Assembly: GCA_965197545.1 (NCBI GenBank)
Contig: CBDANJ010000005.1
Span: 3,311-67,310 of the forward strand
Direction: 5' to 3'
DNA: 64,000 bases
DNA from: Dehalococcoidia bacterium
Lineage (GTDB): Bacteria > Chloroflexota > Dehalococcoidia > Lucifugimonadales > UBA3495
Each line of letters starts with the position of its first letter. The stretch's first letter is position 1. The notes beneath the pieces were generated by a model. It worked only from the letters and a program-made list of their open reading frames with translations, had not been told where the DNA came from and searched no databases. A program made the position numbers and the translations under genes. Below are positions 1,704 through 60,735 of the stretch, piece after piece.

Positions 1704-1782
1704 TTGGAACACCTTCGTCCCAAATCTTGGAACACCCCCCCCTTTGTCCCTGTTCCAAAAAATAAGCGGTCATTTGTGGCAA
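1704..1782. promoter_or_regulatory. four-site array around conserved C8-TTTGTCCC core (copy 1)
   Basis: TTGGAACA at 1704 and 1727; core CCCCCCCCTTTGTCCC at 1735-1750; TGTTCCAA at 1751; TGTGGCAA at 1775. The inner pair forms an 8-bp stem. Confidence 0.6.
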
Positions 1783-1863: not shown

Positions 1864-2856
1864 TCATACCGGGACCGCAAACCGGGTTGCCAGGTACGTC
1901 GAACACTCGTCAATCTTAACCCCTTCCGCTAGGTTAGCCTCCGGGAGTTTTTCAAGCTCGAACCACCGCTCCCTGGCCGGGTGCCACCGTCCCCACTGCC
2001 CCAAAAACTCGTGATCGCACCGCAGCATCCCATCTTTGATCGCCGCGATCTCCTGCTTCACCGACATGCCGGTTCCATCCTTCTCCGGTGCCGCCGCCCA
2101 TGCCCTTAGCACCCGATCCGCCCGCTCAATAGGTTCGTGTTCGGCGGCAACGGCAACCACTCGGACCTGTCGCCCCTTGGCGCGGATCGCATCCCAAAGC
2201 GGAACATGCGCGGCTCCCCATGTGTTGAGTTCGCCGGTGCTCTCCCGGCCTGGATCGACATAGGCAAAGGTGACAGTTTCAGCGGCCCCGGCGATGGGGA
2301 GCTTGAGCGTAAAGTAGCGATTCTTCGCGCCATCGTCTCCATAGTAAATCCGGCGGGGAACCAAGCGGGAAGAAATGCCGAGCCCTTCAAAAAAATCGAC
2401 CTTCTCCGGTTCGGTGGGAAGCCAGTTCGACCCCGGATGTTCCAGGACAAAATCAAGCGATAGGAGCCGCCGCATCAGAACAGAGTTCCGGGCCTTCCGC
2501 CGATGCCGGATATTCTCGACACCGAGCGCCCGGTAGATCGCCATGTTCGAAATCCGGCACAATCGAGCGCCACCGGGAAACATCATCGAATCCCCTTCGA
2601 TGCCCGCCCGCCGCGCCACCAATGCCCTGACAACCCGGAGAGCCTGTTTTCGATCCGTGTTGAAGTAGTGACAAAATTGAGGCCGGATAAAAACCCCGCT
2701 ATGGAGACAGACAAGCGCGATCCATTCCGCCTCCCGTCCCGTCCAGCCAAGCGGTTCCAGTGCTCTCTCTCGCCCGCGCAAGTGCTCGATCATGGCTCGC
2801 CCAATGGTCCCCTTTCCCCTCGCCTTCGATTCTGCCAGATCGGTCCTCGCCGTCAA
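1864..2856 (-). CDS. family-X protein (330 aa); possible winged-helix replication-relaxation-like protein
   Basis: ORF track. Paralog of 11938..12957, nearly identical over about the first 165 aa. The N-terminal pattern LGWTGREAEWIALVCLHSGVF..RALVARR resembles wHTH Replic_Relax-type proteins; this is recalled from memory, not searched. Confidence 0.55.
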   Translation of the reverse strand: MTARTDLAESKARGKGTIGRAMIEHLRGRERALEPLGWTGREAEWIALVCLHSGVFIRPQFCHYFNTDRKQALRVVRALVARRAGIEGDSMMFPGGARLCRISNMAIYRALGVENIRHRRKARNSVLMRRLLSLDFVLEHPGSNWLPTEPEKVDFFEGLGISSRLVPRRIYYGDDGAKNRYFTLKLPIAGAAETVTFAYVDPGRESTGELNTWGAAHVPLWDAIRAKGRQVRVVAVAAEHEPIERADRVLRAWAAAPEKDGTGMSVKQEIAAIKDGMLRCDHEFLGQWGRWHPARERWFELEKLPEANLAEGVKIDECSTYLATRFAVPV

Positions 2857-5180: not shown

Positions 5181-5734
5181 GCCATAAGCACTGGAACCAT
5201 TAGCAAGGTGGAGATGTCCCTATCCGAGTTCGGTCCATTCTCTCCAGAGGTCGAAGCGCCCTATTGGATATGCGGAGACAAGGGCAATAAATGTTCTAAT
5301 GGCGGTATTAAGTTTGAACCAGGGAAGTATGTTCTGACCGCTACACCCTATACGGATAGTGGCGAAGAGGGGCAGAAGAACACCCTTAGATTCTCAGTTT
5401 CGCAATGAGAGACGACTCAACATCGCTGATCCCGGAGGCCTGAGCGGGAGTTCTGCCTTTCCTGGTGAGTCGGGTATTGTAGTGGACCAGCACCATTGGG
5501 GTCACCTCACGAAACGGAAAAAATCGTACGCTCAGGCCGATTGAGCGGCGGTAGGGGTCGCAAGTTGCGCTGTTCGACTTGCTTGTTCTGCCGCCAGGTT
5601 GATGTGCTCCCAGCCCAGTGGCGTCAGCTCGGAGCCGCCTAATTCCTTGTCGTCGGTGGCATGAGGGGCGCGGGAATGGCCCACTCCGCATCCGGCAGGT
5701 CAAAGGTATGGGGAGGTTGTCGTTGGATACGATC

Positions 5735-6004
5735 TCAAATGGCGGCTTTGAGAGCCTTGCCCGCTGAGAATTTTGCTACCCTTCCCGCCGGAATCCGGAT
5801 GGACTGACCGGTTTGAGGGTTCCTTCCCGTACGCTCCCCTCGTGCGGAGGCTGAAAAAGTCCCGAACCCGATGAGAGTGACCTTGTCGCCACTCTTGAGG
5901 GAGCTTTGCACATTGCTCACAAAAGCGTCCAGAGCCGCCTGAGCTTGGGCTTTAGTGATACTTGCATCATTCGCAATTGCCTCAATTAATTCACCTTTGT
6001 TCAT
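5735..6004 (-). CDS. hup: HU-family DNA-binding protein
   Basis: [11 protein letters not shown]...[41 protein letters not shown] is the canonical HU/IHF fold signature. Confidence 0.9.
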
Positions 6005-6275
6005 CTCTCCTCCTTAGCGTTAAACCAACTCAAGCGGCCTCCATCAGCAACTGATCGCGGATCGGGTTGAGGCCCTCTTCAAACTGTGCGGCCCCAATAA
6101 GATAATCATCCAGTCTGTCAGGAAGAACTCTATTCTGACGCCTTAGCGCACCGTCCCTGACGTTAGGCTAGGGTATGCCTCAACCCGACGCCTTCCTAGA
6201 GTGTACATCTTCAGCGAAAGTGAGACATACACTCCTGTCATGCTTTAGATGACCTTGTTCGAGGGGGCCTAAAAG

Positions 6276-6815: not shown

Positions 6816-7895
6816 CTAAGTTAGACCTGGGACCATTTGAAGTCCACTCCATGGTATAGAACTCTGGGCCTGGGACCTGGGTAATCTGGCCTCCGGCGCC
6901 GGCGGCCGATAGGCCAAGGCGCTGTGAGGCCGTCGCTGGTTGTACTCCCTGCGCCATCTCTCGGCCAACACCTTCGCCTCCCACAACGTGTCGAAGACTT
7001 CTACGTTCAGCAGTTCATCCCGCAGTTTTCCGTTGAAGCTCTCCACATATCCATTCTCCCAGGGGCTGCCGGGCTCGATGTATAAGGTCCTCACCCCAAC
7101 AGCCTTCAGCCAGTCCCGAACCGCCTGAGCCGTAAACTCCGACCCGTTATCGGACCGAATGTATTCAGGCACTCCCCGATCCACGAACAGCTCCGCCAAT
7201 CGATCCAACACGTCCTGGTGATTCATCTGTCGTTGAACCTCAATGGCCAGACACTCCCGGGTGTATTCATCCAGTAGGGTTAATAATCGAAAGGCCCTTC
7301 CGTCATGGGTTCGCTCATGCACGAAGTCATAGCTCCAGACGTGATCCTTGTGAGCCGCTCGTAACCGAACGCAGGATCCATCATGAAGCCACAGTCTCCT
7401 TCGTTTCGGCTGTCTGGACGGGACCTTCAACCCTTCTCGCCCCCACAACCTCTCCACCCGCTTGTGATTCACTTTCCACCCTTCCCAACGAAGCATGGCC
7501 GTGATCCGTCGGTAGCCGTATCGCCCGTAGTGCGTGGCCAACTCCACCATCTCAGCCACCAATCGAGCCTCATCATCGGGGATATGCCTTTCCCTTCGCT
7601 GGGTCGATCGAGCCTGTCCCAGCACTTGGCAAGCCCGACGTTCGGAGACGCGCTCTGCTCCCAATCTCTCCCTCACCCACACCACTGCGCGTCTCCTCTT
7701 CGTCGGGCCTAGAAGTTTCCCGAGGAAACTTCCTTTAGAATCTGCTTGTCCAAAGACAGATCTGCCACTAGCTTCTTCAACCGGGCATTCTCCTTCTCCA
7801 ACACCTTCAACCGCTTGGCCTGATTCAGTCGAAGCCCTCCGTACTCCTTGCGCCACCGGTAGTAGGTCTGCTCGGTCACCCCAATCTGTTTGCAC
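6816..7895 (-). CDS. IS3 OrfB (DDE integrase part; made as an OrfAB fusion)
   Basis: Shows rve-type motifs (HSDNGSEF-like [26 protein letters not shown]). Lies in the -1 frame relative to orfA. Confidence 0.85.
7644..7721 (-). promoter_or_regulatory. programmed -1 ribosomal frameshift signal of the IS3
   Basis: Slippery heptamer G_GGA_AAC in the orfA zero frame (rc of 7715-7721), 6 nt before the orfA stop. The 10-bp stem GGAGACGCGC/GCGCGTCTCC (7644-7653 / 7687-7696) lies 18 nt downstream. The -1 reading gives the OrfB sequence [11 protein letters not shown]. Confidence 0.7.
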
Positions 7896-8054: not shown

Positions 8055-8364
8055 CCAGCAACAGGCGGGAGAGATTCCCGAAGGGCAGTCCGGTTTGACC
8101 CACGGCCGTCATGATCAGGGTGTAGGGGCCGTTGACGCGCCTGTATTGAAGCTGACGGCCCGGGTTGGTGCGGGGCAGGGAACACAGCATCATCAACCGC
8201 GCCATGAACCCCGTGTAGGGAGTTGCTTCACTGGCTCTAACCAAAAGGTCCACCTGATCGAAACGGGTGAAGTGGTCAACGCCTGGGGAGAATAGTCTCG
8301 GAGCGCCTTCACGGGTTCCTCCCGGCCCGGGAAGATTCCCCCGTCGGTTCTGTAGCTTCTGGAC
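8055..8364 (-). pseudogene. repA: repA 5' fragment, cut by the IS3
   Basis: ..FTRFDQVDLLVRASEATPYTGFMARLMMLCSLPRTNPG..LPFGNLSRLLL is collinear with RepA residues about 30-125. Ends at the IS3 IR. Confidence 0.7.
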
Positions 8365-9261
8365 GTGGCCAGACCGGCTGAATAACCCAGCGGTTCTCCG
8401 CAGCTTCATAGCCCTTGACGAACAGAGCCTCTTCCACGAGACGCCGCCCCTCACGCCGCGTCATGTGGATCACCAGGGCGATCCCGTCCACCACCCCCCT
8501 ACAGGTGACTTCCCAGGGAAGCTCCCCGCCGCCCTGCATGGCGCAACTGGCGATCCGGGATAAGGCGCTTTCGGCGTTGTTGGTGTGTACGGTCGTGAGC
8601 GACCCGCCGTGTCCGGTGTTAAGGGCTTGCAGCAGGTCCGCCGCCTCCCCGCCGCGAACCTCGCCCACGACGATGTGATCCGGTCGGTGGCGAAGCACAT
8701 GGCGCACGAGATCCCGGATCGTCACCGCTCCCTCCTGTAGCCCTCGACCCTCGAAGCGGACGCAATTCGACCGCTCGATGCGAAGCTCCAGCGTGTCCTC
8801 GATGGCGACTATCCGCTCGCTGTCGGGGAGAAGTTCGATGAGGGCATTGAGCAGCGTGGTCTTGCCCGATCCGGTTCCGCCTGAAACCAGGATGTTACGC
8901 CGCGAGCGCAACATTCGCTCGGCTTCCTGCCGCACGTTTTTGGGGAGCGCTCCTTGCGCCACAAGATCATCCGCCGAGAACGCCCGCTTTCCAAACCGCC
9001 GGACAGTGATTGCCGCCGTGGGGCTCGCGGGCGGGACACAGCTGGCCACCCGCGAGCTGTCCTCCAGTCGCGCATCGACAATTGGCGAGCTTGCCGGGTC
9101 CAGGCCCAAAGGCCGTGCGCCGTCAACCGCCCGGCCCGCTCGACCCAGACATTGCCTGGACCGTTAATCATGATCTCGCTGACTTCGGCATCTTCCAAGG
9201 CGCTTTCCAATCCCGGTAGAAATGGTTTCAGGTGTTCCAGTCCGCTTGCCGCGTTGCTCAT
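8309..9261 (-). pseudogene. virB11: VirB11/TrbB-type secretion ATPase, frameshifted
   Basis: N-terminus MSNAASGLEHLKPFLPGLESALEDAEVSEIMINGPGNVWVERAGR is in one frame. The Walker A VSGGTGSGKTTLLNAL and the rest are in another frame. The junction is near 9105-9112. The ATG overlaps the traG stop (ATGA). Confidence 0.75.
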
Positions 9262-11579
9262 ATCTCTCCGGCCTCCTTTGCTCTCCAATAAGAATGATCC
9301 AGGGGAAGGTAATGAGGTTTGAGATAAACCCTCCGGGGTTCCAGCGATTGCGCTCCGTCATAGGGCAAGCAAATGGCTTGACAGTTTCCAAGCAAGGTGA
9401 AGTCTCGCGGGTGAAAGACGGCCTCCCGGCGCTCCTGGAAAGACTTGGTTGCGCCGATGCTTCCGCCCGATCCACCGGCTCGGCCCGATAGCGGGGACAC
9501 GCCCGCCCGCTTCGAGGTCTCGCTGATCGTGTACGATCCTTTGATCTTGGCAACCTGCCCGCACAATTCCGATGCGATCTTGGCGGATGCGTCGTCGCTC
9601 AAGGATAGAAAGATCCGGGTGCGGAGTGTCTGCAAGAGCGCCCGCCACGCCTCCGAACTGCCCAGCACGGCCCGCAATGAGGATATGGATTGGGTCGCAA
9701 CAATCGGGATGCACCGGCATTGCCGCGTTAAGGCAAAGGATTTCTCATCGCCGGTCGGATCGTCCTCACCTACCGACGCGAACGCTTGATATTCATCACA
9801 GATAAAGACGGCTGGCCGAAAGTAGTCCGTGGGGGATTCTTTCATCTGCGCCGGGCGCATAAGCAGGGCTTGAAGCCATGCGTTTTTGAGCATCACGCCG
9901 ATGGCGCGGGCCAGCGCCGGGTTGCTCCCGGCTGGCATATTCAAGGCCAGCACCTTGCCGCCCTCGATCAATTCATAGAGCGGCGGTAAGTAGCGCGGCC
10001 TGGAAGCAATGGTATCTGCGGGCCATTGCCGGGATTCCTGGGGCTTGCCGTCGCCGCTGTCCTCCCCCTGGCCCTGGGCCTGGGTCTTCGCTTTGGCCTT
10101 CTTCTCGGCCAGCATCGCGGCCCTGGCCTTCGGGCCGATGCGCTTGGGATCGTCGGACACTTCCGGCGCGGGCGGGCAAAACACCGCCGCCACGTCCGGC
10201 ATATCGAACATCGAGAGGAAGACCGAAACGCCCTCGACAATCGAGGATTTGATTTTGTTGTCCAGCTTTTGCCAGTCGTTCTCAAACCACCGCTTCACAG
10301 CGGCCACCCGCTCTCGCACATCGTCACCGGCTCCGGGCTCCCAAACAATACGGGGTTGGATCTCCAATTTCTTTAGTTTCTGCTCCAATTCCAGGCTCCA
10401 TTCGGCCCGCATTTCCTTCCCGCTTTCTCCCCGCACCGCCACCCATTGCCACTCTCCAACCTCCACCATTTTCTCGTCCCACTTCTGGAACGGAATAAAA
10501 ACCTCCCCGGTGTTTAGCTCTGCGCTCCACGCCTCGGCCTGTTTGATTTTGGCCGTGAAAAGATCCGGGTCAATCGCGCATTGATAGACCTGCTGCAATG
10601 TCACCCACTGCTCCGGTAGCACCCGGTGAAGCTCGATGATCCAGCGCACCAGATTGGTATAGGCTTGCTGCCAGAACGGTTCCTTGCCCTTTCCGAAAAG
10701 CTGATTCAAAAGGCTGGAAACGGTGTAGGCCAGCGAGTATGAATCGAGCCACCAAGCCGAGAGCGGGTTCCATTTCCAGAGGCCGCCCATTCCAAGCTCC
10801 AGGTAGTCGGCTCCCCGGCCCGCGTCGTCCAGGATCGAGCGAATGTCATGGCAAAAATCTCCCTTCACTTCGAGCATGAGCGCCGCCGCCCGCTTCTCCG
10901 GATCGTCCGCTTGCCAGCCGAGTAGTTGCTTGGCGAAGGGGTGCATGCAGGCCGAAGTTTTGCCGCTCCCCACCGCTCCGAAAATGGCAATGCCGGTGTA
11001 CAGTCCGCGCTCCGGGATGGTCAGCCATTCGGGGTTGAAAATCTCCCTGGCTTCGACCGGATGATGCACTTCACCGATGACGATTTCCGGGCCGGGCTGA
11101 TCCGGGGAAAGCGGCCAAGCGGGGAGCGCCCCAAAGGGAATTAAATCGCGCTTTCGCGCCTCAATCCAAACCTTCCAAACGGAGAGGGCAATAGATCCGG
11201 CCAGCATCACCGCCACCAGCGGAGAAAGGTAGTACCAAACCACAACGGCGCTATAAAAATTCGGGTTGTGATACTCCAAAAGATCGAGCAAAGGGACCGT
11301 CTCAAGCGCCGGAAAAGGACGCCGGACAAAGCTCCAAACGGCGAACCAAGCCCCCCCGAAAAAGAGGATCACGGTGGGGGGAATTGCCAGGAAAATCTGA
11401 CCGGCGCGGACGCCGTACCGGACCCATTCACCCACCAAAAAGGCCGCGCCGTTGAAGATTTCCCAGCCGATATAGGCCGTCACGCGGACGGGGTTTTTCC
11501 AGTTCATCGGCCCGGCCTCCCGGCGCCAAAACCGGCTCAAGGCCGTGGTCAGTGTCCGATAGTTCTTCCGCAATTCCAT
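9258..11579 (-). CDS. traG: type IV secretion coupling protein (TraG/VirD4/TraD family)
   Basis: N-terminal TM segments, Walker A GAVGSGKTS, and C-terminal VFICDEYQAFASVG..ALTRQCRCIPIVATQS. The start was chosen at MELRKNY (GGAGAA RBS) rather than the track start. Confidence 0.85.
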   Translation of the reverse strand: MELRKNYRTLTTALSRFWRREAGPMNWKNPVRVTAYIGWEIFNGAAFLVGEWVRYGVRAGQIFLAIPPTVILFFGGAWFAVWSFVRRPFPALETVPLLDLLEYHNPNFYSAVVVWYYLSPLVAVMLAGSIALSVWKVWIEARKRDLIPFGALPAWPLSPDQPGPEIVIGEVHHPVEAREIFNPEWLTIPERGLYTGIAIFGAVGSGKTSACMHPFAKQLLGWQADDPEKRAAALMLEVKGDFCHDIRSILDDAGRGADYLELGMGGLWKWNPLSAWWLDSYSLAYTVSSLLNQLFGKGKEPFWQQAYTNLVRWIIELHRVLPEQWVTLQQVYQCAIDPDLFTAKIKQAEAWSAELNTGEVFIPFQKWDEKMVEVGEWQWVAVRGESGKEMRAEWSLELEQKLKKLEIQPRIVWEPGAGDDVRERVAAVKRWFENDWQKLDNKIKSSIVEGVSVFLSMFDMPDVAAVFCPPAPEVSDDPKRIGPKARAAMLAEKKAKAKTQAQGQGEDSGDGKPQESRQWPADTIASRPRYLPPLYELIEGGKVLALNMPAGSNPALARAIGVMLKNAWLQALLMRPAQMKESPTDYFRPAVFICDEYQAFASVGEDDPTGDEKSFALTRQCRCIPIVATQSISSLRAVLGSSEAWRALLQTLRTRIFLSLSDDASAKIASELCGQVAKIKGSYTISETSKRAGVSPLSGRAGGSGGSIGATKSFQERREAVFHPRDFTLLGNCQAICLPYDGAQSLEPRRVYLKPHYLPLDHSYWRAKEAGEI

Positions 11580-11652
11580 AGGCCCATTCTCCGCTTGATC
11601 TGCGCCGCCGTGAGGCGTCTTTTCCGAGCCTTCCCGCAGGGATAAATACCGG

Positions 11653-11747
11653 CGATAGCGACCCCCTGGGGCCGGTGTAAGGGCCTGTCCCACAGGGCAG
11701 CTACACGGGGCCAGTAGGAACCCCCGTTTCGGGGGGGGTCGCTATCG
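11653..11747. repeat. same GC-rich inverted repeat as 1576..1617, with about 67 nt inserted in the loop (copy 2)
   Basis: Arms CGATAGCGACCCCC (11653-11666) and GGGGGTCGCTATCG (11734-11747). Same upstream flank CTTCCCGCAGGGATAAATACCG. Confidence 0.6.
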
Positions 11748-11835
11748 TCTCCCCGAATTTTTCTGTATCAGCACGCGGGAAGCCGATTAGTAGGGACAAA
11801 CCACAGAAAACAAAAGAGTTCAAGGAAAGTTGGGT

Positions 11836-11912
11836 TGTCCCGCCCCCACGCTTTTTTATGCCCCACCCCCCCCTTTGTCCCTGGGGCAAAAAATAAGCGG
11901 TCCTTTGGGGCA
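11836..11912. promoter_or_regulatory. four-site array around the C8-TTTGTCCC core (copy 2)
   Basis: TGTCCCG at 11836; TGCCCCA at 11859; core CCCCCCCCTTTGTCCC at 11866-11881; TGGGGCA at 11882 and 11906. Confidence 0.6.
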
Positions 11913-11937: not shown

Positions 11938-12957
11938 TCAAACCGGCTCCGAAAACCGGGTTGCCCGAAACGTCGAATAGCCGTCAATCGAGACCCCTTT
12001 CGTAAGCTCCGCTTCGGGAAGTGTCATGAGTTCCTTGTACCGCTCCACCGCGCCTTGCATCCCTCCGTACTGGCTCATAAATTCCTCGTCGTCGCTGTGA
12101 AGTGCCTCTCTAATCGCGTTAATCTCCTGCTTCACCGTCACCCCTTCGATCACCTTTCCCGGCTCCGCCGCCGCCCAAAGCTGTAGCATCCGATCCGCCC
12201 GCAAAACCGCATCCAGTTCCGCGCCGATGGCGATCACTTCCACCCGCCGCCCCTTGGCGCGGATCGCATCCCAAAGCGGTCCATGCGCCGCTCCCCATGA
12301 GTTGAGTTCGCCGGTGCTCTCCCGGCCCGGATCGACATAAGCGACGGTGACAGTTTGAGCGCCACCGGCAACAGGCAGCTTGAGCGCAAAGTAGCGATTC
12401 TTCGCGCCATCGTATCCGTAGTAAATCCGGCGGGGAACCAAGCGGGAAGAAATGCCGAGCCCTTCAAAAAAATCGACCTTCTCCGCCTCGGTGGGAAGCC
12501 AGTTCAACCCCGGATGTTCCAGGACAAAATCAAGCGACAGGAGCCGCCGCATCAGAACAGAGTTCCGGGCCTTCCGCCGATGCCGGGTATTCTCGACACC
12601 GAGCGCCCGGTAGATCGCCATGTTCGAAATCCGGCACAATCGAGCGCCACCGGGAAACATCATCGAATCCCCTTCGATGCCCGCCCGCCGCGCCACCAAT
12701 GCCCTGACAACCCGGAGAGCCTGTTTTCGATCCGTGTTGAAGTAGTGACAAAATTGAGGCCGGATAAAAACCCCGCTATGGAGACAGACAAGCGCGATCC
12801 ATTCCGCCTCCCGTCCCGTCCAGCCAAGCGGTTCCAGCGCTCTCTCTCGCCCGCGCAAGTGCTCGATCATGGCTCGCCCAATGGTCCCCTTTCCCCTCGC
12901 CTTCGATTCTGCCAGATCGGTCCTCGCCGTCAAGGGTCCGCCGGGGCTCGCTTCCAC
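11938..12957 (-). CDS. family-X protein (339 aa), directly upstream of traG
   Basis: ORF track. Paralog of 1864..2856. The C-terminal third is divergent. Confidence 0.55.
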   Translation of the reverse strand: MEASPGGPLTARTDLAESKARGKGTIGRAMIEHLRGRERALEPLGWTGREAEWIALVCLHSGVFIRPQFCHYFNTDRKQALRVVRALVARRAGIEGDSMMFPGGARLCRISNMAIYRALGVENTRHRRKARNSVLMRRLLSLDFVLEHPGLNWLPTEAEKVDFFEGLGISSRLVPRRIYYGYDGAKNRYFALKLPVAGGAQTVTVAYVDPGRESTGELNSWGAAHGPLWDAIRAKGRRVEVIAIGAELDAVLRADRMLQLWAAAEPGKVIEGVTVKQEINAIREALHSDDEEFMSQYGGMQGAVERYKELMTLPEAELTKGVSIDGYSTFRATRFSEPV

Positions 12958-13719: not shown

Positions 13720-14940
13720 AGCTCAACCGGTCGATGCAACACAAGCGTTAAATCGTTCTGCCGGAGTTTCAAACTCCAGCGTCTGACGGGGCCGTTCGTT
13801 CAGCTGACGTGCCACCTTGTTCAGATGCGCCTGAGAGTGCATCGACAAGTCCGTTCCCTTGGGGAAGTACTGTCGGAGTAGACCGTTGGTGTTCTCATTC
13901 GAACCGCGCTGCCATGGACTCTGAGGATCGCAGAAGTATACATCAATGTCGGCCGCCAACGTGAACCGTCGATGCTCGGCAAGCTCCAGGCCTCGATCCC
14001 AAGTCAGAGATTTGTACAGCTCCGTCGGCAGCTTCTTCGCGTGCTTGATGAGCGCCGACACGACCGTCTCCGTTTTCTTGCTGGATACTTTCGTAAGCAT
14101 CACGTAGCGCGTATGACGTTCGACCAGAGTCGCAATGTGGCTGTTCTTCGATCCGGACAGCAGATCGCCTTCCCAATGACCGGGCACGGCACGATCTTCG
14201 ACCGAGGCCGGGCGCTCACGGATCGATACGATGCCGGTGATCTGTCCTCGTCCATGGCCTCTCAGACTTGCATGCCGGGATCGACGAATCGTCCGCTTTG
14301 ACCGTAGATGCTGCATCAGCTCTGCCTTCAGCGCACCACGGGCTTGAACAAACAGGCTGCGGTAGATGGTCTCGTGAGACACGTGATAGGACGGATCCTT
14401 CGGATAGGCTCGTTTCAGCCAGCTGGCGATCTGCTCAGGCGACCAGTTTATGCTGAGCTTTCTGGCCACTACCCGTCGTAGTGGTGGATGCTTGACCAGC
14501 TGACACCGCTTCGGACGGCGGGCCCTCTCCCAGGCTCGCTCATCGGCCTCCGCTGCTCGATAGTCATCATCGCCGCCATTCCGGCGAATCTCCCGGCTCA
14601 CCGTCGATGGTGAGCGACCCATCAACCCGGCGATGGATCGTATCGATTGATGTGCCGCAATGCCTCGAGAGATCTCTTCGCGCTCCGACAACGTCAGTGC
14701 CAAACATGAACGGCGTGGTGGCCGAGGACGGATGCCTCCGTACAAAGCAAGCTGACGGTAAACAGACGATGGCTGCTTACCAAACACTCGTCCAATCGAC
14801 TTTAGCGACTCCCCTCGTTTCCACCGGTCCCACACCTCCTCCAGTTCCGCCAGCGTGTAACCGCGACGAGCTCTTTGCTTCATCCGCATACACTCCACCT
14901 CCTCCTTTCAAGGCAAAGTGTTGCGTCGATGGGTTGAGAC
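13720..14940 (-). mobile_element. IS30-family insertion sequence
   Basis: Imperfect IRs: CTCAACCGGTCGATGCAACAC at 13722, matched by the rc of 14918-14938, CTCAACCCATCGACGCAACAC. Carries a single transposase. Confidence 0.8.
13723..14883 (-). CDS. IS30-family transposase
   Basis: HTH plus DDE region (GHWEGDLL, TLTWDRGLELA-like SLTWDRGLELAEH, RGSNENTNGLLRQYFPKG). Confidence 0.9.
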   Translation of the reverse strand: MKQRARRGYTLAELEEVWDRWKRGESLKSIGRVFGKQPSSVYRQLALYGGIRPRPPRRSCLALTLSEREEISRGIAAHQSIRSIAGLMGRSPSTVSREIRRNGGDDDYRAAEADERAWERARRPKRCQLVKHPPLRRVVARKLSINWSPEQIASWLKRAYPKDPSYHVSHETIYRSLFVQARGALKAELMQHLRSKRTIRRSRHASLRGHGRGQITGIVSIRERPASVEDRAVPGHWEGDLLSGSKNSHIATLVERHTRYVMLTKVSSKKTETVVSALIKHAKKLPTELYKSLTWDRGLELAEHRRFTLAADIDVYFCDPQSPWQRGSNENTNGLLRQYFPKGTDLSMHSQAHLNKVARQLNERPRQTLEFETPAERFNACVASTG

Positions 14941-15205
14941 CACCACACTTATCGTGCTGTAGATGGAAGCATCTGAGGGCTTCGGTTTTTCTGGTCTTTC
15001 CAGAGAGCGCGCCAACGCGTCCTCTGTGGTCTTGGTGGGGGGGCGCTATGCCAGTATCCTCGAAACTCATAAAGATTTACTCGGACATATCAATCTGCTC
15101 TGATAAATGCAGCGGTGTTAGGAATGAACCGGAAAACGGAGTAATCGGTCGAGGCTTCTACTGCCCATATGATCCAAACGGTGTCTCTTTGATGATGATC
15201 AGTAA

Positions 15206-15413: not shown

Positions 15414-15542
15414 ATTTCCCACAGGCTTGTGTGAATCCCGGGAGTTTTCCAGGAATAAACAGGTACACACTCAAGTAGTAAGACAAGTAGTAAGACAAGT
15501 AGTTAAAGAACAAGTAGTAGGAACGACGACTGTTGTGAATAA
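15414..15542 (+). other. oriV skeleton copy 1 (only a single iteron-like unit)
   Basis: ATTTCCCACA box; GGAATAAAC unit; four CAAGTAGT 12-15-nt repeats at 15472/15484/15496/15511; GACGAC; DnaA-box-like TGTGAATAA (rc TTATTCACA) at 15534-15542. Confidence 0.6.
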
Positions 15543-15619
15543 ACCAAACAGAACCCCAAACGGACCCAAACCAACCCCAACCGGCGAGAGGCTCACCCCT
15601 TTTTGAGAGTAAACTGGCA

Positions 15620-16725: not shown

Positions 16726-17112
16726 CGCCGCGCTGATGGTGTAGTCCGCGCTGATGGCGGATGAATAGTAAAATAGACCCGTGAGAAAGAAGACGACAGA
16801 GACGACAACGATCCGGGGGGCGCTGATCATGCCCTATCCATCCGCGCTCGGACCGTCAGACGAGCCCCTAACGATTGAATGGCCGGAGGGCCACTCCTAC
16901 GCCGTGGTAGCGACGGCATTCCACGGTGGGGCAGTGCTCGGCACGACGGCCACCGAGGACGAGGCATGGGAGATCTACAATCAATGGCCTAAAACTGATT
17001 GCAGGTGTGGGTGCCGGGGTATCGTCACCCGCGATGGGTTTCGCCTCAGGCGCGGTGGGAGTCCGCAAAAGATACTAGACGAATGACCATATTAACTTGA
17101 CCCGCAACACCT

Positions 17113-17310
17113 TTGCGCAGGTCCGGGGGATCAAGCAAGCAAGCAAGAAAGGAAGGGAAACCGCATGGGCGGCCCATGACCGCAGGTAAGCTCGTGCCGG
17201 AAATGAAGCAGCTTCGCAAGGATGGGCTGAGCAAGCGAGAAATCGCCAAGCACCTCGGTGTCAGTCGCCCCTCAGTGATCCGTCTGCTACGTCCCACCAA
17301 GCGCCCTTAA
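17113..17310 (+). CDS. small HTH protein resembling the C-terminal domain of a serine recombinase (possibly a remnant)
   Basis: ..GRPMTAGKLVPEMKQLRKDGLSKREIAKHLGVSRPSVIRLL follows the resolvase HTH pattern. No catalytic domain is present. Confidence 0.35.
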   Translation: MRRSGGSSKQARKEGKPHGRPMTAGKLVPEMKQLRKDGLSKREIAKHLGVSRPSVIRLLRPTKRP

Positions 17311-17502
17311 GGGTACGCGCTCGTAGATTACACGGAGGGAAGCTCTTCGCGCCTTGCTCTACAGCCTCCAAGACCGCTGGCACGAGACTATCCAGAAGCC
17401 GAAAGATCAGTTGCCCCATTGCGCTTTCCTGTGACTCGGCCCGGCCAAGGTCACATCTATCGCCACTTGTCCCTCGATGTCGGCACCATGGACGTGTAGT
17501 CA

Positions 17503-29180: not shown

Positions 29181-29594
29181 TCAGAGAGGTGTCTGCTGCT
29201 GTTCGATGTACTGGCGCACGATGGAGATCGGTGCACCGCCGCAGGATGAGGCAAAGTAGGACGGCGACCAGAGCACGCCCTTCCAGTAGCGTTTCTCGAT
29301 GTCGGGTCGCTCTCTGCGCAGCAGGCGACTGGACACGCCTTTCAGGCTGTTCACCAGACTCGAAACGGCTACCTTAGGCGGATATTCCACCAACAGGTGA
29401 ACATGATCATCTCCGCCGTCCATATCGATCAGGGTGGCCTCGAAGTCGGCACAGACCTTGGTAAAGATCGTACGAAGTCGCTTGATGGCATCGCCGTCGA
29501 ACACCTGGCGGCGATACTTTGCCACAAATACCAAGTGTATATGAATCTTGAAAATACAATATCTTCCGTGTCTTATATCCTTGTAATCTGTCAT
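29181..29594 (-). CDS. tnpA: IS200/IS605 Y1 (HUH) transposase
   Basis: HIHLVFVAKYRR, HVHLLVEYPP (HUH) and SPSYFASSCGGAPISIVRQYIEQQ (catalytic Y). Confidence 0.9.
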   Translation of the reverse strand: MTDYKDIRHGRYCIFKIHIHLVFVAKYRRQVFDGDAIKRLRTIFTKVCADFEATLIDMDGGDDHVHLLVEYPPKVAVSSLVNSLKGVSSRLLRRERPDIEKRYWKGVLWSPSYFASSCGGAPISIVRQYIEQQQTPL

Positions 29595-29615
29595 AGACCA
29601 AATTATAATGTTCTC

Positions 29616-30830
29616 CTGAAACGCCTGCAAACCTTCAAGTTCGAGACGCGGCCCAGTGGTCAGCAGAAACAACGCATGCGCCGCTTCGCGGGCTCACGCC
29701 GTTTCGTGTTCAATCGTGCCTTGGCTTTGCAGAAGGAATGCCACAAGCAAGGCGAGAAGCGGCTCGGCTACGCCGGTCTGTGTCAGTTGCTCACGGCGTG
29801 GCGCCACGCTCCGGAGACGGCATGGCTGGCCGATGCGCCCGCGCACCCTCTGCAACAAGCGCTCAAGGATCTCGAGCAGGCTTATGCCCACTTCTTTGCC
29901 AAGCGGTGTCGGCTTCCACGCTTCAAGAAGAAAGGCCGATCCGAAAGCTTCCGCTATCCCGACCCGAAACAGATCAAGCTCGATCAAGCCAACGGCCGCC
30001 TTTTTCTACCCAAGCTCGGTTGGTTGCGCTACCGAAACAGCCGCAAGGTCCTGGGGGAGGTGAAGCAGGTCACCGTGTGCCAACTCTGTGAGAAGTGGTT
30101 CGTATCGATCCAGACCGAGCGCTGCGTCGAGCCGCCCCTGCCACAGGGCGGGGCTGTCGGCATCGACCTGGGGATTACTCGCTTTGCTACGCTCTCCGAT
30201 GGTACGTTCTACGCACCGCTCAACAGTTTCAAGCGGCATGAGACTGCCTTGCGCAAAGCGCAGCAGGCGATGAGCCGCAAAACCACGTCCAGCAACAACT
30301 GGAAGAAGGCGAAAGGCCGTGTTCAGCGTCTCCATGCCCGGATCCGCAATGGCCGACGAGACGAGCTGCACAAGACCACGACCACGATCAGCAAAAACCA
30401 CGCGATAGTGTGTATCGAGGACTTGAAGGTGAGGAACCTGTCCAAGTCAGCGGCTGGATCAACCGAACAACCGGGCACTCATGTTCGGGCCAAGTCCGGT
30501 CTGAACAAATCCATCCTCGATCAAGGCTGGTTCGAGTTCCGCCGCCAACTGGCCTACAAGCTCCAGTGGTCCGGCGGATTGATGATTCCTGTACCGCCGC
30601 AGAACACGAGTCGTACCTGCCCGTGGTGCGGTCATGTGTCGAAGGACAACCGGCGGACTCAATCCCGGTTCGAGTGTGTGGCATGTGGTTTAAAGGAAAA
30701 CGCCGATTTAGTGGGTGCGATCAATATTCTAAGGGCAGGGCTTGCCCGGTTCGCCTGTGAAGTGAGCGGCGCAGTCATGCCGCCAGCAGCAGGAACCCTC
30801 CGAAGCGACTCGCTCAGGCATACAGCCTGA
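29616..30830 (+). CDS. tnpB: TnpB (IS605 OrfB, RuvC-like RNA-guided nuclease family)
   Basis: QTFKFETRPSGQQ..FAGSRRFVFNRAL; GIDLGITRFATLSDG; CIEDLKVRNL; CPWCGH..FECVACGLKENADLVGAINI. There is no in-frame ATG near the expected N-terminus, so CTG 29616 is a guess. Confidence 0.8.
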   Translation: MKRLQTFKFETRPSGQQKQRMRRFAGSRRFVFNRALALQKECHKQGEKRLGYAGLCQLLTAWRHAPETAWLADAPAHPLQQALKDLEQAYAHFFAKRCRLPRFKKKGRSESFRYPDPKQIKLDQANGRLFLPKLGWLRYRNSRKVLGEVKQVTVCQLCEKWFVSIQTERCVEPPLPQGGAVGIDLGITRFATLSDGTFYAPLNSFKRHETALRKAQQAMSRKTTSSNNWKKAKGRVQRLHARIRNGRRDELHKTTTTISKNHAIVCIEDLKVRNLSKSAAGSTEQPGTHVRAKSGLNKSILDQGWFEFRRQLAYKLQWSGGLMIPVPPQNTSRTCPWCGHVSKDNRRTQSRFECVACGLKENADLVGAINILRAGLARFACEVSGAVMPPAAGTLRSDSLRHTA

Positions 30831-31695: not shown

Positions 31696-32685
31696 CTACG
31701 GACCCTCGTCCAGATAATAGCCGGAGCCGACCAGGATGGGCAGGCCATAGGCCACGACCCTTTTGACGAAAGCCACCTTGCGCTGCAGCCTCCCGGTGGC
31801 GGGATTGCGCGTCGAGTAGTACAGGAAGGTTTCCCCGAACGCATCGCCGACGCTCACCACATCCCGGCCGCCGAAGGGACCGTCCAGATAGTCATTCAAC
31901 TCGGGAGCAAGGCTGCCCCACCACTGGCTGCTGTAGGGATCGCCGCTGAACAGCGGGTAGCCGTAGGTATCCAGGCCGAACAGGTAGATCGAGTCGTTCC
32001 TCCAGCGCGGATCGCTCGACAGCGCCCGGGTGGCGAAGTACCCCTGCGATTCCAGCTCCATTGCGGCGCAGCGGACAAACTCCTTCAACCTCGCGTTGGA
32101 AGGCTCGGCGGCGAGCACCGTGGCGTTGACGTCGTCCTTGTTGCATGTGCCCGGAATGTCGCGCTGATAGATCCCCGCGCCGATCGCTGCCGGCACCCCG
32201 TTCCAGTCGATGGCCTTGGCGTAGGCAGCCTTCGGTTCACTCTTTTCCGACGCCGGGTTTGTGAAGTCGTAGTAGGTCCAACCCTCGCCGAAGCTGCTCA
32301 TGAGACGAACGAATTCCAAAATGAGGTCGCTGCCGAAGATGTCGACTAGTTCTCCCCACGGCACCCCTTCCCTCGACGGGTCGGGTGGAAAGACAAACGC
32401 TCGAGACGCCCCAGGCACCGGCGTCATTTCGTCGACGAAGACATAGGTGGGGCCGCTTTTCCAACGCTCGTCCTCGTTGAAGGCGCGCCGTGCCTCTTCA
32501 AAACCCATTTCCTGGACATACTCATAGGCACATTGAACGAAGATTTCAACGTCCTTCGGCGTCCGGACAGCGCTGGCGACGACGGACTGATCCGCGCAAG
32601 GCGGCGGTTCATCGGCACCGAACGCCTGCGGCGCGGCGTATAGCAAAATCAAGGGAAGCAGCAATGGGGAAAGACTAGGTTTCAT
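31696..32685 (-). CDS. periplasmic tandem Cache-like domain protein
   Basis: Signal peptide MKPSLSPLLLPLILLYAAPQAFG. FNEDERWKSGPTYVFVDE..GWTYYDFTNPA..PKAAYAKAIDW..IGAGIY, then a second similar half. Paralog of 47018..48013. Confidence 0.7.
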   Translation of the reverse strand: MKPSLSPLLLPLILLYAAPQAFGADEPPPCADQSVVASAVRTPKDVEIFVQCAYEYVQEMGFEEARRAFNEDERWKSGPTYVFVDEMTPVPGASRAFVFPPDPSREGVPWGELVDIFGSDLILEFVRLMSSFGEGWTYYDFTNPASEKSEPKAAYAKAIDWNGVPAAIGAGIYQRDIPGTCNKDDVNATVLAAEPSNARLKEFVRCAAMELESQGYFATRALSSDPRWRNDSIYLFGLDTYGYPLFSGDPYSSQWWGSLAPELNDYLDGPFGGRDVVSVGDAFGETFLYYSTRNPATGRLQRKVAFVKRVVAYGLPILVGSGYYLDEGP

Positions 32686-32918
32686 AGTCTGCCCATTTTC
32701 CCACATCTCCAAGACAAGAACCACAAGAGAAACAAAGCTCAACCACAAAAAGGGGGGCTTTACGCCCTTGAGAAAGAACTAGCGGCTGGGGCCATAGTCT
32801 CGCTCCGGCCACGGCAGTAGCGGCCTTGGCGTGCCCCTTTTTTTCCGTTCGGCACGGGGTGGGCCGAGTAGTAGAGGATAACCACAGCGGAATGAGAGAG
32901 ATAAGGAAATATGGAGTT

Positions 32919-32994
32919 GTGACACCTTTGGGACGAATCGGGTGACACCCCCCCTCTGTCCCTGTCACATTTATCGCGCGGCCCTCAGTCACAT
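32919..32994. promoter_or_regulatory. four-site array around the C-rich core (copy 3)
   Basis: GTGACA at 32919 and 32942; core CCCCCCCTCTGTCCC at 32948-32962; TGTCAC at 32963; AGTCAC at 32987. Confidence 0.55.
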
Positions 32995-33020: not shown

Positions 33021-33270
33021 TCATCCGGTTTCCTCCGGGGCGGAAAAACGGGTGGCCCGCCACGTTTCGCAGTCGTCAATCGAGACCCCTTCCGTCAGTT
33101 TCGCTTCGGGGAGGCGTTGAAGCTCAACAGACCGTCTCCCGGCTCCCCCGTAGCCTCCATACTGCGCTAGAAACTCCTGGTCCCTACGGGTGATCGCCTC
33201 GTGGATCGCCTTGATCTCCTGCTTTACCGTGAGTCCTTCGGCGGACTTCCTCTGCCGCAGGGCGTCCCAA
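33021..33270 (-). pseudogene. family-X 3' fragment (third copy)
   Basis: ..WDALRQRKSAEGLTVKQEIKAIHEAITRRDQEFLAQYGG..LPEAKLTEGVSIDDCETWRATRFSAPE aligns with the C-termini of 1864..2856 and 11938..12957. Confidence 0.65.
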
Positions 33271-33321
33271 AACCGCAGATGGATATCCCTGTCTTGTCTG
33301 GGGAATATGGGAGAATAAACT

Positions 33322-34296
33322 ATGGAGCGTAAACGAGATGGGTTGCTTCCTATCGGGGAAGTCTTCGGCAGCTTGGACGGGCCGGTGAAAACACTCCAGA
33401 AGTCGCCCCGGGCGCAGCGGGGCTTCACCCAAGCCGACCAAGTGAATCAGCTTGTTTCGGCCAGTGAAGCGGACCCGGATCTCGGCTTCATGGCGCGGTT
33501 GATGGCGCTGTGCAGCCTGCCTCGCACCAACCCCGGAGACCGACTTCAGTACAAGCGCGTCAACGGGCCGTATAAACTCATCATGTCGGCCACCGGGGAC
33601 CACAAGCTGCCCTTCGGCAACCTCCCACGCCTGTTACTCGCCTGGGTCTCGACCGAAGCGGTGCGGACCCAAAGCCGCGAACTCGTCCTGGGGAAGTCGC
33701 TTTCAGATTTCATGCGAACACTAGGAATAAACAGCACCAGTGGCGGGAAGAGGGGCGAGCAAACCCGGCTTCGTAATCAGATGCGGCGGCTTTTCAATGC
33801 TCATGTCCGGTTGGTCTACGAGCACGAGCACGGCGAAGCAAGCGTGAGTTCGTCTGTAGCCGACCGCACCGAGTTCTGGTGGAATCTCAAGCGTCCCGAC
33901 GAGCCGATGCTGTGGCAGAGCAAGATCCGCCTCGGCGAAGACTTCTTTAACGAGATCATCCGCCATACCGTCCCGATCGACATGAACACCCTCAAGGCGC
34001 TCAAACGGTCCCCGCTGGGCCTGGATCTCTACCTGTGGCTCACCTACCGCACCTTCGCCCTCCGCGCTGCACAGCGGCTCACTTGGCGTCAGGTGTACCG
34101 TCAGTTTGGAGCGGACCCGGCCAAAGCCAGCGATAAGCGCACCGTTCTAAACTTCCGTAGCAAGGTTCTACGGGAGTTCAAGAAGATCAAAGCGGCCTGG
34201 CCGGCTCTGAATTACGCGACGGCTCCAGGCGCGTTGATCCTCTTGCCCTCGACGCCAGTCATTGCACCATCGAATCATCGTCAGCTAGCAAATTAG
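33322..34296 (+). CDS. repA: RepA_C-type plasmid replication initiator
   Basis: GGGAGA RBS. FMARLMALCSLPRTNPG, FGNLPRLLLAWVSTEAVRTQSR, LRNQMRRLF, VPIDMNTLKALKRSPLGLDLYLWLTYR. Confidence 0.85.
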   Translation: MERKRDGLLPIGEVFGSLDGPVKTLQKSPRAQRGFTQADQVNQLVSASEADPDLGFMARLMALCSLPRTNPGDRLQYKRVNGPYKLIMSATGDHKLPFGNLPRLLLAWVSTEAVRTQSRELVLGKSLSDFMRTLGINSTSGGKRGEQTRLRNQMRRLFNAHVRLVYEHEHGEASVSSSVADRTEFWWNLKRPDEPMLWQSKIRLGEDFFNEIIRHTVPIDMNTLKALKRSPLGLDLYLWLTYRTFALRAAQRLTWRQVYRQFGADPAKASDKRTVLNFRSKVLREFKKIKAAWPALNYATAPGALILLPSTPVIAPSNHRQLAN

Positions 34297-34416: not shown

Positions 34417-34599
34417 TTTTCCACAGGAGCCTGTGATTCAGGGAAGTTTTCCACGCTGTTGCGGGATACCTTCCCCATCAATTCTTCGCTGTTGCGGGAT
34501 ACCTTCCCCATCAATTCTTCGCTGTTGCGGGATACCCATACAAGTAATAAGACAAGTAATAAAGAAACAAGTAGTAGGAACGACGACTACTGTGAATAA
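34417..34599 (+). other. iteron-type oriV (copy 3, complete)
   Basis: TTTTCCACA box at 34417; iterons; CAAGTAAT/CAAGTAGT AT-rich repeats; GACGAC; TGTGAATAA (rc TTATTCACA) at 34591-34599. Confidence 0.65.
34454..34537 (+). repeat. iterons: CGCTGTTGCGGGATACC x3 at 33-bp spacing
   Basis: Starts at 34454, 34487 and 34520. The first two units are identical over all 33 bp. Confidence 0.8.
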
Positions 34600-34684
34600 A
34601 TCAACCGAAAACAGAACCTGGAACAAGAGGATCCCAAGGGCGCCAGGTTGCCCTCTCTGTAAGACCCGCTAAGTGCCTTTATCA

Positions 34685-60180: not shown

Positions 60181-60364
60181 ATTTCCACAGGGTTGTGCGA
60201 TTCCGGGGAGTTTTCCAGGAATAAAACCCTTCACTGAAAACCCCGGTCTTTGGAATAAAACCATTCACCCGCCCCCCGGTCTTTGGAATAAAACCCTTCA
60301 CCATACAAGTAGTAAGAACAAATAGTACAGAACAAGTAGTAGTAGCGACGACTACTGTGGATAA
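60181..60364 (+). other. iteron-type oriV (copy 6, complete)
   Basis: ATTTCCACA; iterons; CAAGTAGT-type AT-rich repeats; GACGAC; perfect DnaA box (rc TTATCCACA) at 60356-60364. Confidence 0.65.
60218..60305 (+). repeat. iterons: GGAATAAAACC(C/A)TTCAC x3 at 34/33-bp spacing
   Basis: Starts at 60218, 60252 and 60285. Confidence 0.75.
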
Positions 60365-60735
60365 ATCAATCGGATCAAAAAACCACAAGAGACGCCAGCG
60401 AGCCCTGAGAAACGGCCAAAATCCTTCCTTTTAGGAGTGGAAACCAAGGAATCGGTGGGACAGGGCTGTCCGAGAACGGCTTGCACAAACAAACGGTTCT
60501 GTAACCCCCTGGTCCACCCCCCGGCCCTTTTGCAGAGTCTATCAATAGATATATTTGTATTTATTTGTACCAGGGCTTCTTCGGAGTCCGGCAAAGCGGC
60601 TCGCCTGTCAAGTGGCGAAGGCCGTTGATCGAGACGCTGGAACCAGGGTTGCCGTTGCCCTTGCGCAGACACCATGGGATAGGATATTTTAATTAGAAGA
60701 GAGCAAGATGTGTTTTTGTTTCACATAAACTCTTG

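Follow-up and report, generated by a model that had tools for sequence, protein, structure and literature searches.

What is the function of a G-rich core flanked by four short sites that occurs three times within 64,000 nucleotides of DNA, each time with different site sequences? The stretch in question, hereafter called the window, comprises positions 3,311 to 67,310 of contig CBDANJ010000005.1 (assembly GCA_965197545.1, Dehalococcoidia bacterium). In each case the array of core and sites follows a gene, or the remnant of a gene, of an unnamed protein family, here called family X. Homologous loci were found in the type IV secretion operons of conjugative elements. The array is best read as a set of locus-specific X binding sites that mark the transfer-origin region of such an element and whose specificity can be exchanged. 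The probability of this reading is estimated at roughly 0.5.

Architecture of the array

The array is described on the X-coding strand, which is the minus strand of the window, unless forward coordinates are given. In this orientation it consists of site A, 16 nt, site B, the core, the inverted site C, another 16 nt and site D. Three copies were read at 1704-1782, 11836-11912 and 32918-32993 with spacings of 23 and 24 bp. An original prediction made from the window alone had reported this number of copies, their positions and the fixed spacing, and all three were confirmed on the sequence. The proposed location downstream of family-X genes was found as well, since every copy lies 3′ of a minus-strand X gene or gene remnant. 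The core with the flanking TG occurred three times in the window, compared to 0.04 occurrences expected from dinucleotide-preserving shuffles.

On the forward strand, copy 1 reads TTGGAACA at 1704-1711 and 1727-1734, the core CCCCCCCCTTTGTCCC at 1735-1750, TGTTCCAA at 1751-1758 and TGTGGCAA at 1775-1782. Copy 2 was found to contain TGTCCCG (11836-11842), TGCCCCA (11859-11865) and two copies of TGGGGCA (11882-11888 and 11906-11912). For copy 3, (T)GTGACA was identified at 32918-32924 and 32941-32947, followed by the core CCCCCCCTCTGTCCC (32948-32962), TGTCACA (32963-32969) and AGTCACA (32987-32993).

Conservation and covariation in homologous loci

For the identification of homologous loci, one genome per species was scanned, resulting in 80 loci with an X gene. 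All of them originate from metagenome-assembled genomes of Acidobacteriota (Terriglobia, Bryobacterales, Acidiferrales), often with many loci per genome. The same layout was found 70-100 nt after X in 67 distinct Acidobacteriota sequences, and the fixed geometry expected from the three copies was kept in these homologues. The sites follow the consensus TGnnnCA with 14 different central triplets. The distance between sites A and B is 24 or 22 nt, and the distances from B to C and from C to D are both 23 nt; the spacings are nearly equal and the four sites are therefore evenly phased. Of the core, only CA(G/A)A and 7-8 G were kept across the 67 loci. The 4-5 nt beside site B vary (GGGA, CGCT, GTCA, GGGT or CCCT on the X strand), so that the earlier description of the core as invariant was too strong.

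Next, the covariation of the sites was analyzed in an alignment of 60 sequences. For sites B and C, 93.6% of the cells were complementary and the three central positions showed 22-27 double changes each; for sites A and D, complementarity was 71.7%. The observed covariation score was reached by none of 500 shuffles, and the signal was lost when the partner was slid by 1-3 columns. The compensatory replacement of the sites, previously argued to exceed chance, thus held in the larger alignment. The mean number of mismatches was 0.90 between B and C compared to 2.14 with permuted loci, and 1.25 between C and D compared to 2.29; mismatch counts were better than in the locus-permuted controls for all site pairs. 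In 33 loci all four sites agree within one mismatch, and in 20 of these a fifth site, E, described below, agrees as well. The intact operon of the Acidobacteriota contig L087 has five coherent sites of a single type. Clusters of cognate sites were found in the 21 kb of L087 only in the gap between X and the following coupling-protein gene, and across 62 loci they occurred in no other 100-nt bin.

The high complementarity of B and C and their many double changes would also be expected from a bare hairpin of RNA or single-stranded DNA, with B:C as stem, the core as loop and no dedicated protein. The inverted repeat next to the array does behave as a base-paired structure. However, sites A, D and E share the 7-mer although they lie outside this stem, and the commonest site type carries a fixed C.A mismatch in it (TGCCGCA versus TACGGCA, 9 loci). 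In addition, the site sequence is predicted by a helix of the X protein, as shown in the next section, and no Rfam family matches. Because of the unpaired covarying sites, the predictive helix and the fixed mismatch, a hairpin acting without a protein is considered very improbable. The hairpin had been part of the original prediction. Its stem covaries and its loop keeps CA(G/A)A and the G-run, which agrees with that proposal; the loss of the loop in distant relatives and the covariation of A, D and E do not.

A recognizable version of the array is also present in Gemmatimonadota. There, the gap contains an inverted repeat, GATCCCTCCGGGAAGG at the position of the nick-like motif described below, a short G-run and GCGCAC repeats at 23-nt spacing, one of which lies in the loop of the inverted repeat. 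In another distant locus, the G-tract is missing and the sites are different. From the comparison of these loci, the inverted repeat and the motif behind it are conserved furthest, followed by the site architecture and finally by the core.

Protein X and the prediction of its sites

More than 3,000 close relatives of X, corresponding to 2,228 clusters at 50% identity, were found in public protein collections. None has a Pfam domain or a name other than "hypothetical protein". Scans of X against Pfam, NCBIfam and PHROG, including all 36 members of an alignment, gave nothing meaningful at E-values up to 5, and no match to an HUH, Rep or relaxase family was found. A profile search against the PDB sequences returned no match with an E-value below 0.04. 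X was absent from 72,556 plasmid records (tblastn), in which the region had no relative either (megablast, blastn).

For the analysis of the association between protein and sites, an alignment of 64 X proteins was compared with the site triplets. The highest mutual information was found for residues 68 (2.07 of 3.12 bits) and 73 (2.02 of 2.87 bits) of the open reading frame (ORF). Residues 66-74 (x-(T/A)-x-R-x-x-A-x-R) are hypervariable, whereas the rest of the N-terminal region is strongly conserved. The distance between two helices predicts the distance between their sites with a partial Mantel r of 0.39, a value reached in none of 2000 permutations. The N-terminal remainder (r = −0.03) and the C-terminal part (r = 0.09) were much less informative.

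The pairings of helix and site recur across protein backgrounds, orders and taxa. Written in the orientation of site C, the helix DRK(R/Q)ALR is paired with TGTGGCA, (E/D)SKRAHR with T(A/G)CGGCA, QR(I/M)TASR with TG(G/T)AACA and RRN.A.R with TGTTCCA. The helix (H/G)RK(R/Q)AER occurs with TGTGACA, HRW(K/T)AAR with TGTCACA, GRKRAYR or YRKHAYR with TGGGACA and (Y/F/W)RK.AHR with TGGGGCA. The two remaining pairings are WRSGAQR with TGTACCA and HRSAARR with TGTACCG. The mutual information and the Mantel correlation support a protein-binding array of swapped specificity, the second of the two readings considered originally, and point to family X as the binder. That X binds these sites is very probable.

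A first AlphaFold2 model of X, based on 36 close homologues, was poor (predicted local distance difference test, pLDDT, 61), and a fold search with it was uninformative. A deeper alignment of 56 sequences resulted in a model with a pLDDT of 85.5 and a predicted template modeling score of 0.81. This model contains helices at residues 19-31, 37-44 and 48-60, the last being the recognition helix, followed by strands at 64-70 and 76-81 that form a beta wing. The variable, site-predicting residues open the third helix of the helix-turn-helix. Using Foldseek, structures of MarR, MepR, SlyA and CadC matched the winged helix with probabilities of 0.85-0.98, the E-values being only 0.08-0.3, and a weak MarR_2 match was found in one distant X member. 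The N-terminus of X is modeled as a winged-helix (MarR/ArsR-like) DNA-binding domain, which would contact the bases of the sites.

Residues 100-309 form an unassigned alpha/beta domain, for which nothing matched significantly. Uncharacterized phage proteins were found in BFVD with X (E = 6e-5). The endonucleases R.BspD6I and Nt.BspD6I matched the C-terminal two thirds weakly (E = 0.06-0.2, probability 0.1-0.75), which is not significant. Assignments of X to the PD-(D/E)xK, DDE/RNase H-like or tyrosine-recombinase enzymes were rejected, since the strands of the model accommodated no conserved catalytic residues; the acidic residues that are invariant (D114, E128, E130) sit in helices.

These endonuclease matches lie outside the winged helix, and the inverted sites flank a conserved spacer of 15-17 nt at a fixed distance in all loci. 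X itself might therefore cleave or nick the core, either with the C-terminal domains of two molecules meeting over the 16-bp spacer or with the core exposed in a hairpin loop. In that case, transfer or rolling-circle replication would actually initiate in the core. Designed nucleases, in which recognition and cleavage reside in separate domains, are an analogue of the two-molecule arrangement. The lack of a relaxase gene near X in intact operons and the hybrid loci with left and right halves of different type (e.g. L004 and L068) also fit cleavage in the core. However, neither a PD-(D/E)xK nor an HUH or DDE motif can be placed on the strands of the model, and hybrid junctions were found between A and B and between C and D besides the core. 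In distant relatives the core is poorly kept, in contrast to the inverted repeat and the nick-like motif. A hairpin version meets a further difficulty, since the outer sites, which a hairpin does not need, covary too: A and D change with B and C without a plausible stem, and the two 16-nt spacers are not complementary to each other. Together with the lack of an HUH or Rep match this argues against the HUH-type nick in a hairpin loop that the original prediction had put first. Cleavage of the core by X is considered improbable.

The fifth site, the branched inverted repeat and the nick-like motif

The fifth cognate site, E, is part of a long inverted repeat and was found about 185 nt 3′ of the core. 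Near this position cognate 7-mers gave 22 matches compared to 2 for mismatched controls. Between site E and site C the mean number of mismatches was 1.06, compared to 2.02 ± 0.09 for permuted loci. The inverted repeat is about 100 nt long and branched, with the arms GACGA(T/G)AGCGACCCCCCC ... GGGGGTCGCT(A/C)TCGTC and site E at the tip of a nested hairpin. Its closing stem shows compensatory changes (UA 23 with GC 20 at one pair; AU 39, UA 3 and GC 1 at another), and paired changes also occur in the bases on either side of site E (GCA/TGC, GTA/TAC, GCG/CGC and GTG/CAC).

Directly after the inverted repeat follows the nick-like motif ATTTATCCCTGCGGGAAGGCT, which is nearly invariant in all loci. 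It lies about 250 nt from the core, and the array is separated from the branched repeat by about 130 nt. The distance of this motif from the core, and the loss of the core in distant relatives, do not fit a nick in the loop of a B:C hairpin. In Acidobacteriota, GGAGA and the ATG of the coupling-protein gene are located about 55 nt beyond the motif.

The arrangement resembles the transfer origins (oriT) of the MOBP type, which are characterized by the nick consensus (C/T)ATCCTG(C/T) with an inverted repeat 5′ of the nick (PMC3772185). In the X loci, GACGA(T/G)AGCGAC...GTCGCT(A/C)TCGTC ends 6 nt before the pyrimidine-rich TATCCCTGC, and TTATCCCTGCGGG differs from the MOBP consensus by one base. 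Further similarities are the location in an intergenic gap of the transfer cluster and the presence of a MobA/VirD2 relaxase in the window. The differences are one extra C in the motif, a branched repeat of about 100 nt instead of a simple one of 16-25 bp, and a relaxase gene that is not adjacent. A transfer origin is favored because the inverted repeat lies 5′ of TATCCCTGC in the only large gap of the conjugation operon, with the coupling-protein gene beside it. The position of the nick and a role in transfer are suggested by this likeness.

A role of GGGAAGG within the nick-like motif as ribosome-binding site of the coupling-protein gene was considered, but the spacing fits the Gemmatimonadota locus only. 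For Acidobacteriota it was rejected, because the ATG there has a GGAGA of its own in front of it, about 55 nt beyond the motif.

Read on the plus strand (1576-1623 and 11732-11764), antisense to the coupling-protein gene, the inverted repeat leads into a T-run (CCCCTCTTTTTT) and has the appearance of an intrinsic terminator. The corresponding A-run on the sense strand is conserved across loci. An antisense transcript with its start in the 5′ end of the coupling-protein gene might be terminated here.

An ORF-less group II intron was identified in locus L019 at about 5251-6030. It begins with GTGCG, and its insertion point is exactly behind ...ATTTATCCCTGCG, immediately 3′ of the long inverted repeat, in the sense orientation of X and the coupling protein; the same junction was found in L021 and L055. 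In Rfam it matched RF02005 (171 bits, E = 1.6e-51), and RF00029 for domains V-VI. The position of the intron suggests a transcribed gap and a repeat that is recognized as a stem-loop target.

Rfam had no match in the whole window at gathering thresholds. With permissive settings, the array and the inverted repeat fit no family, and over copy 2 only HBV epsilon was found below threshold (E = 0.21). The search for a known RNA family, suggested together with the original prediction, thus offered no other explanation of the array.

Operon context

In intact loci the gene order was found to be VirB2, B3, B4, B9, B10, an unnamed gene, B6, B8, X, the gap, the coupling protein and VirB11. This order is present in the Acidobacteriota contig L087 and in the Gemmatimonadota genome L085, and the coupling protein and VirB11 follow X in most of the 80 loci. 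X overlaps the end of virB8, and the gap between X and the coupling-protein gene is non-coding with a length of 300-360 nt. By its position and content this gap is the likely transfer-origin region of the element. Rare fusions of X were found in metagenomic contigs, both with ArdC (P0133, P0144 and P0175) and with VirB8 (P0277 and P0313). ArdC is an anti-restriction and single-stranded-DNA-binding protein, and the fusions are consistent with X acting together with the transfer apparatus.

In L087, VirB11 is followed in the same operon by genes for a staphylococcal-nuclease-like protein and a VirC1/ParA-like ATPase, at 14526-15050 and 16772-17419. VirC1-type proteins are relaxosome recruiters in Agrobacterium and in Helicobacter tfs4. 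A literature search on conjugative elements of Acidobacteriota returned nothing relevant.

The location of the sites between two genes of one operon, in the path of transcription, would also suit a local operator. X would act as a repressor or roadblock on the array and site E and set the levels of the coupling protein and VirB11, the inverted repeat being an attenuator or 5′ leader structure and no transfer origin. The MarR-like winged helix, the sense-oriented group II intron in the gap of three loci, which implies a transcribed gap, and the terminator-like score of the inverted repeat agree with this. Proteins such as TraJ, TrwA and TraY, which act as oriT accessory factors, often double as regulators, and such a role would be compatible with a transfer origin. 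However, a promoter scan found no sigma-70-like promoter in the gap, and in the 21 kb of L087 cognate sites are absent from the start of the X operon and from all other positions. The T-run follows the inverted repeat on the antisense and not on the sense strand, and the repeat with its ATCCCTG motif is kept across phyla at the DNA level. Moreover, a repressor has no obvious need of at least 14 interchangeable specificities, unless cross-talk between elements matters. A purely local operator is therefore judged unlikely, though it is the strongest of the alternatives.

Iterons typically show a phasing of 22-24 bp, and their co-evolution with winged-helix initiators is a classical case (Rep_3 and RepA-type plasmids). 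The array might accordingly be a replication origin of the excised element, with X as initiator and sites A to D as iterons. A conserved, relatively AT-rich block after site D (TATCTCTCTCATT) would be the unwinding region, TGTGGTTATCC, with 7 of 9 positions, a DnaA-box-like sequence and the inverted repeat a priming signal. X also matched a replisome organiser, protein O and RepL in BFVD, although weakly (E ~0.1). On the other hand, X matches no Rep family, is absent from the plasmid records and is translationally coupled to virB8 inside a secretion operon. The two direct and two inverted sites do not form a direct array, and the elements in the window have a separate RepA_C gene with repeats of its own. 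A role as iteron-type origin is quite improbable. An attP, circle junction or resolution site was rejected as well, since elements integrated in the chromosome carry the array intact and a spacer of 16 bp does not suit known recombinases.

The array copies in the window

Both full-length X genes of the window encode the helix DRKQALR, whose partner in other loci is TGTGGCA/TGCCACA. Among all sites of the window, only site A of copy 1 has a sequence of this type. The X gene of copy 1 is located at 1864-2793 (minus strand) and encodes 309 aa from the likely start Met22 of a 330-codon ORF (1864-2856); the codons of its recognition helix (NTDRKQALR) are at 2635-2661. On the same strand the array follows with site A (TGCCACA, 1775-1781), site B (TGGAACA, 1751-1757), the core (GGGACAAAGGGGGGGG, 1735-1750), the inverted site C (TGTTCCA, 1728-1734) and site D (TGTTCCA, 1705-1711). 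Site A matches the type predicted for the helix of the adjacent gene, in contrast to sites B, C and D, which are of the RRN type. TGTGGCAA at 1775, previously taken for an imperfect copy of one common site, is thus a site of different specificity. Between site D and the long inverted repeat lies a conserved block (1618-1703, ..ATTCC.CTATCTCTCTCATTC.GCTGTGGTTATCCCCT..). The inverted repeat itself (GACGATAGCGACCCCCC / GGGGGGTCGCTATCGTC, 1576-1617) is present without the usual insert of about 60 nt that bears site E. Directly 3′ of it is the nick-like motif TTATCCCTGCGGG (1558-1570), after which copy 1 breaks off.

Copy 2 is the most complete one and lies entirely on the minus strand. Its X gene was assigned to 11938-12870 (also given as 11938-12957), with the DRKQALR helix codons at 12712-12738. 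The sites are all of the GGG/GGA type and thus mismatched to this helix: TGCCCCA at site A (11906-11912) and site B (11882-11888), TGGGGCA at site C (11859-11865) and CGGGACA at site D (11836-11842). The core (11866-11881) has the same sequence as in copy 1. The branched inverted repeat (11651-11749) consists of the closing stem P1, a hairpin of a C-run and a G-run, and the nested hairpin with site E (TGGGACA, 11686-11692) at its tip. It is followed by the nick-like motif TTATCCCTGCGGG (11633-11645). Downstream on the minus strand are the gene of the type IV coupling protein (TraG/TraD-like, 9258-11579), with its ATG at 11579-11577 and GGAGA before it, and, as the next gene of the operon, that of a VirB11-like ATPase (T2SSE, 8309-9109).

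In copy 3, only a 3′ remnant of X is left (33021-33320, minus strand), which is cut off by a plus-strand RepA_C gene (33322-34296). The minus-strand sites are TGTGACT (A, 32987-32993), TGTGACA (B, 32963-32969), TGTCACC (C, 32941-32947) and TGTCACA (D, 32918-32924), with the core GGGACAGAGGGGGGG at 32948-32962. The copy ends before the inverted repeat.

Over about 230 aa, the first two thirds, the X proteins of copies 1 and 2 are near-identical, whereas identity falls to only about 50-60% in the remaining third. This pattern indicates recent gene conversion between co-resident copies, by which the disagreement of helix and sites in copy 2 is explained. In the related loci L002 and L011 the cognate type is kept at A and E and lost at B to D. 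The array copies of the window, judged by their helix and site types, are recombination mosaics and relics. The window is crowded with insertion sequences and truncated copies of the same conjugative element.

Transposable elements were found at 6816-7895, 13723-14898, 29397-30830, 34811-35776, 36397-37542 and 53545-56520. They comprise two rve-type transposases, TnpB/OrfB_IS605, an IS110-family transposase, an IS481-like helix-turn-helix protein and a Tn3-family transposase, and break up several partial copies of the conjugative element. Directly abutting copy 3, and unrelated to the array, is one of two paralogous Cache-domain sensor genes (31696-32748 and 47018-48013). These are 15.3 kb apart, share 77-81% DNA identity including their upstream regions and account for the repeat families D4, D5, D9 and D14.

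The window further contains a module of replication and mobilization genes. A mobC-like ribbon-helix-helix gene (60783-61123) is followed by a MobA/VirD2-type relaxase gene (PF03432, 61125-62505), both on the plus strand. Just upstream of mobC (region 60720-62505) lies the palindrome CCAGGGGGCGATCCCCCTGG, which contains GATCCCCCTGG, a sequence reminiscent of the ATCCCTGC motif beside the coupling-protein gene. Downstream of each RepA_C gene conserved repeat blocks were found (60182-60402, 15416-15580 and 34418-34637). One of them consists of three ACAAGTAGTA-like units, behind which lies a short inverted repeat (GCGACGACTACTGTG). The third copy additionally has two or three copies of GGTCTTTGGAATAAAACC.TTCAC. 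These blocks are probably RepA iterons or the origin of the replication-mobilization module.

Proposed function of the array

Sites A to D would be double-stranded binding sites for the X protein encoded immediately upstream, with the fifth site at the tip of the inverted repeat. The central triplet of TGnnnCA would be read by X with the first residues of its winged-helix recognition helix. With two direct and two inverted sites phased by about 23 bp, the X molecules would sit on the same face of the DNA, arranged symmetrically about the G-tract. If the gap is a transfer origin, X may serve as its specificity factor, as TraJ, TraM and TcpK do elsewhere, and mark the cognate origin for the assembly of the relaxosome or the hand-over to the coupling protein. 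Joint exchange of helix and sites would keep the many related elements of one genome from acting on each other. Contig CBDCKA010000002.1 is an example of such a genome; it carries eight X loci, seven of them with arrays, which belong to five different specificities. With many related elements sharing one cell, an interchangeable specificity makes sense.

Several observations weigh against this interpretation. The conserved G-tract core has no role in it and is left unexplained. Mosaics in which helix and sites disagree are frequent and include the three loci of the window; part of the sample is thus decayed. X is physically adjacent to its sites, and this linkage inflates any association between them; this effect is lessened, though not abolished, by the partial Mantel test and by the recurrence of the pairings in different backgrounds. 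The C-terminal two thirds of X could be enzymatic. At the place of the nick-like motif the exact MOBP hexanucleotide ATCCTG was found in no locus, as TATCCCTGC has an extra C. No canonical relaxase gene was found within 10 kb of X in L087 or within 6 kb in L085, and the only one in the window adjoins a RepA_C gene and has no array next to it. The inverted repeat upstream of mobC and this relaxase gene is an alternative candidate and could be the real oriT.

The G-tract and the C-terminal domain would both find a function if X were a sequence-programmable initiator, in which the swappable three-base code is combined with a domain that nicks or melts DNA in the G-tract. This is improbable; if true, it would provide a relaxase-independent or a second initiation site for transfer or replication.

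Comparison with known systems

One of the closest described counterparts is TcpK of plasmid pCW3 from Clostridium perfringens, a winged-helix accessory protein of the oriT; it binds repeats there, and efficient transfer depends on it (PMC6137059). As judged from its published description, TcpK is similar to X in being a formerly hypothetical, conjugation-specific winged-helix protein with short repeats in the oriT. However, it is much smaller and binds tandem 9-nt repeats that are 3 nt apart through its wing (PMC6137059). X, in contrast, has about 310 aa with a large extra domain, and its sites are 7-mers phased by about 23 bp, two direct and two inverted, with a fifth, distal one.

To our knowledge, no family-wide code of helix and site has been described for TcpK. 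TraJ (RP4/R751) and TraM and TraY (F-like plasmids) are likewise encoded beside the oriT and bind repeats near the nick in an allele-specific manner, and TraM links the relaxosome to the coupling protein TraD. They differ from X by their ribbon-helix-helix or other small folds, by other site layouts and by few specificities per family, compared to at least 14 on one fixed scaffold in X.

Variable repeats that co-evolve with a short specificity segment of a protein beside a conserved center are also known from iterons and their Rep proteins, from geminivirus Rep and from RepC of the pT181 family with IR-III. In X, the Rep or HUH signature is missing, the bracketed element is a G-tract and no known nick sequence, and the location is a conjugation operon. 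The general theme, co-evolving protein and site specificity beside a conserved center, is thus already known from these systems as well as from TraM and TraJ. New are the X family, which lacks annotation and is missing from Pfam, NCBIfam and the plasmid records, its fixed place in the secretion operon, the layout of five sites around a G-tract and a branched repeat, and the breadth of the helix-to-triplet code.

Implications

With these results, an unannotated protein family gains a role and a testable DNA target. Its hosts, Acidobacteriota and Gemmatimonadota, are two dominant and genetically intractable soil phyla. The natural exchange of specificity, with at least 14 pairings of helix and triplet on one scaffold and in one geometry, amounts to a readable recognition code of the winged helix. 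By exchangeable specificity, up to eight or nine related elements per genome could stay functionally separate. The likely transfer origin indicated here is the piece needed for mobilizable vectors in these organisms.

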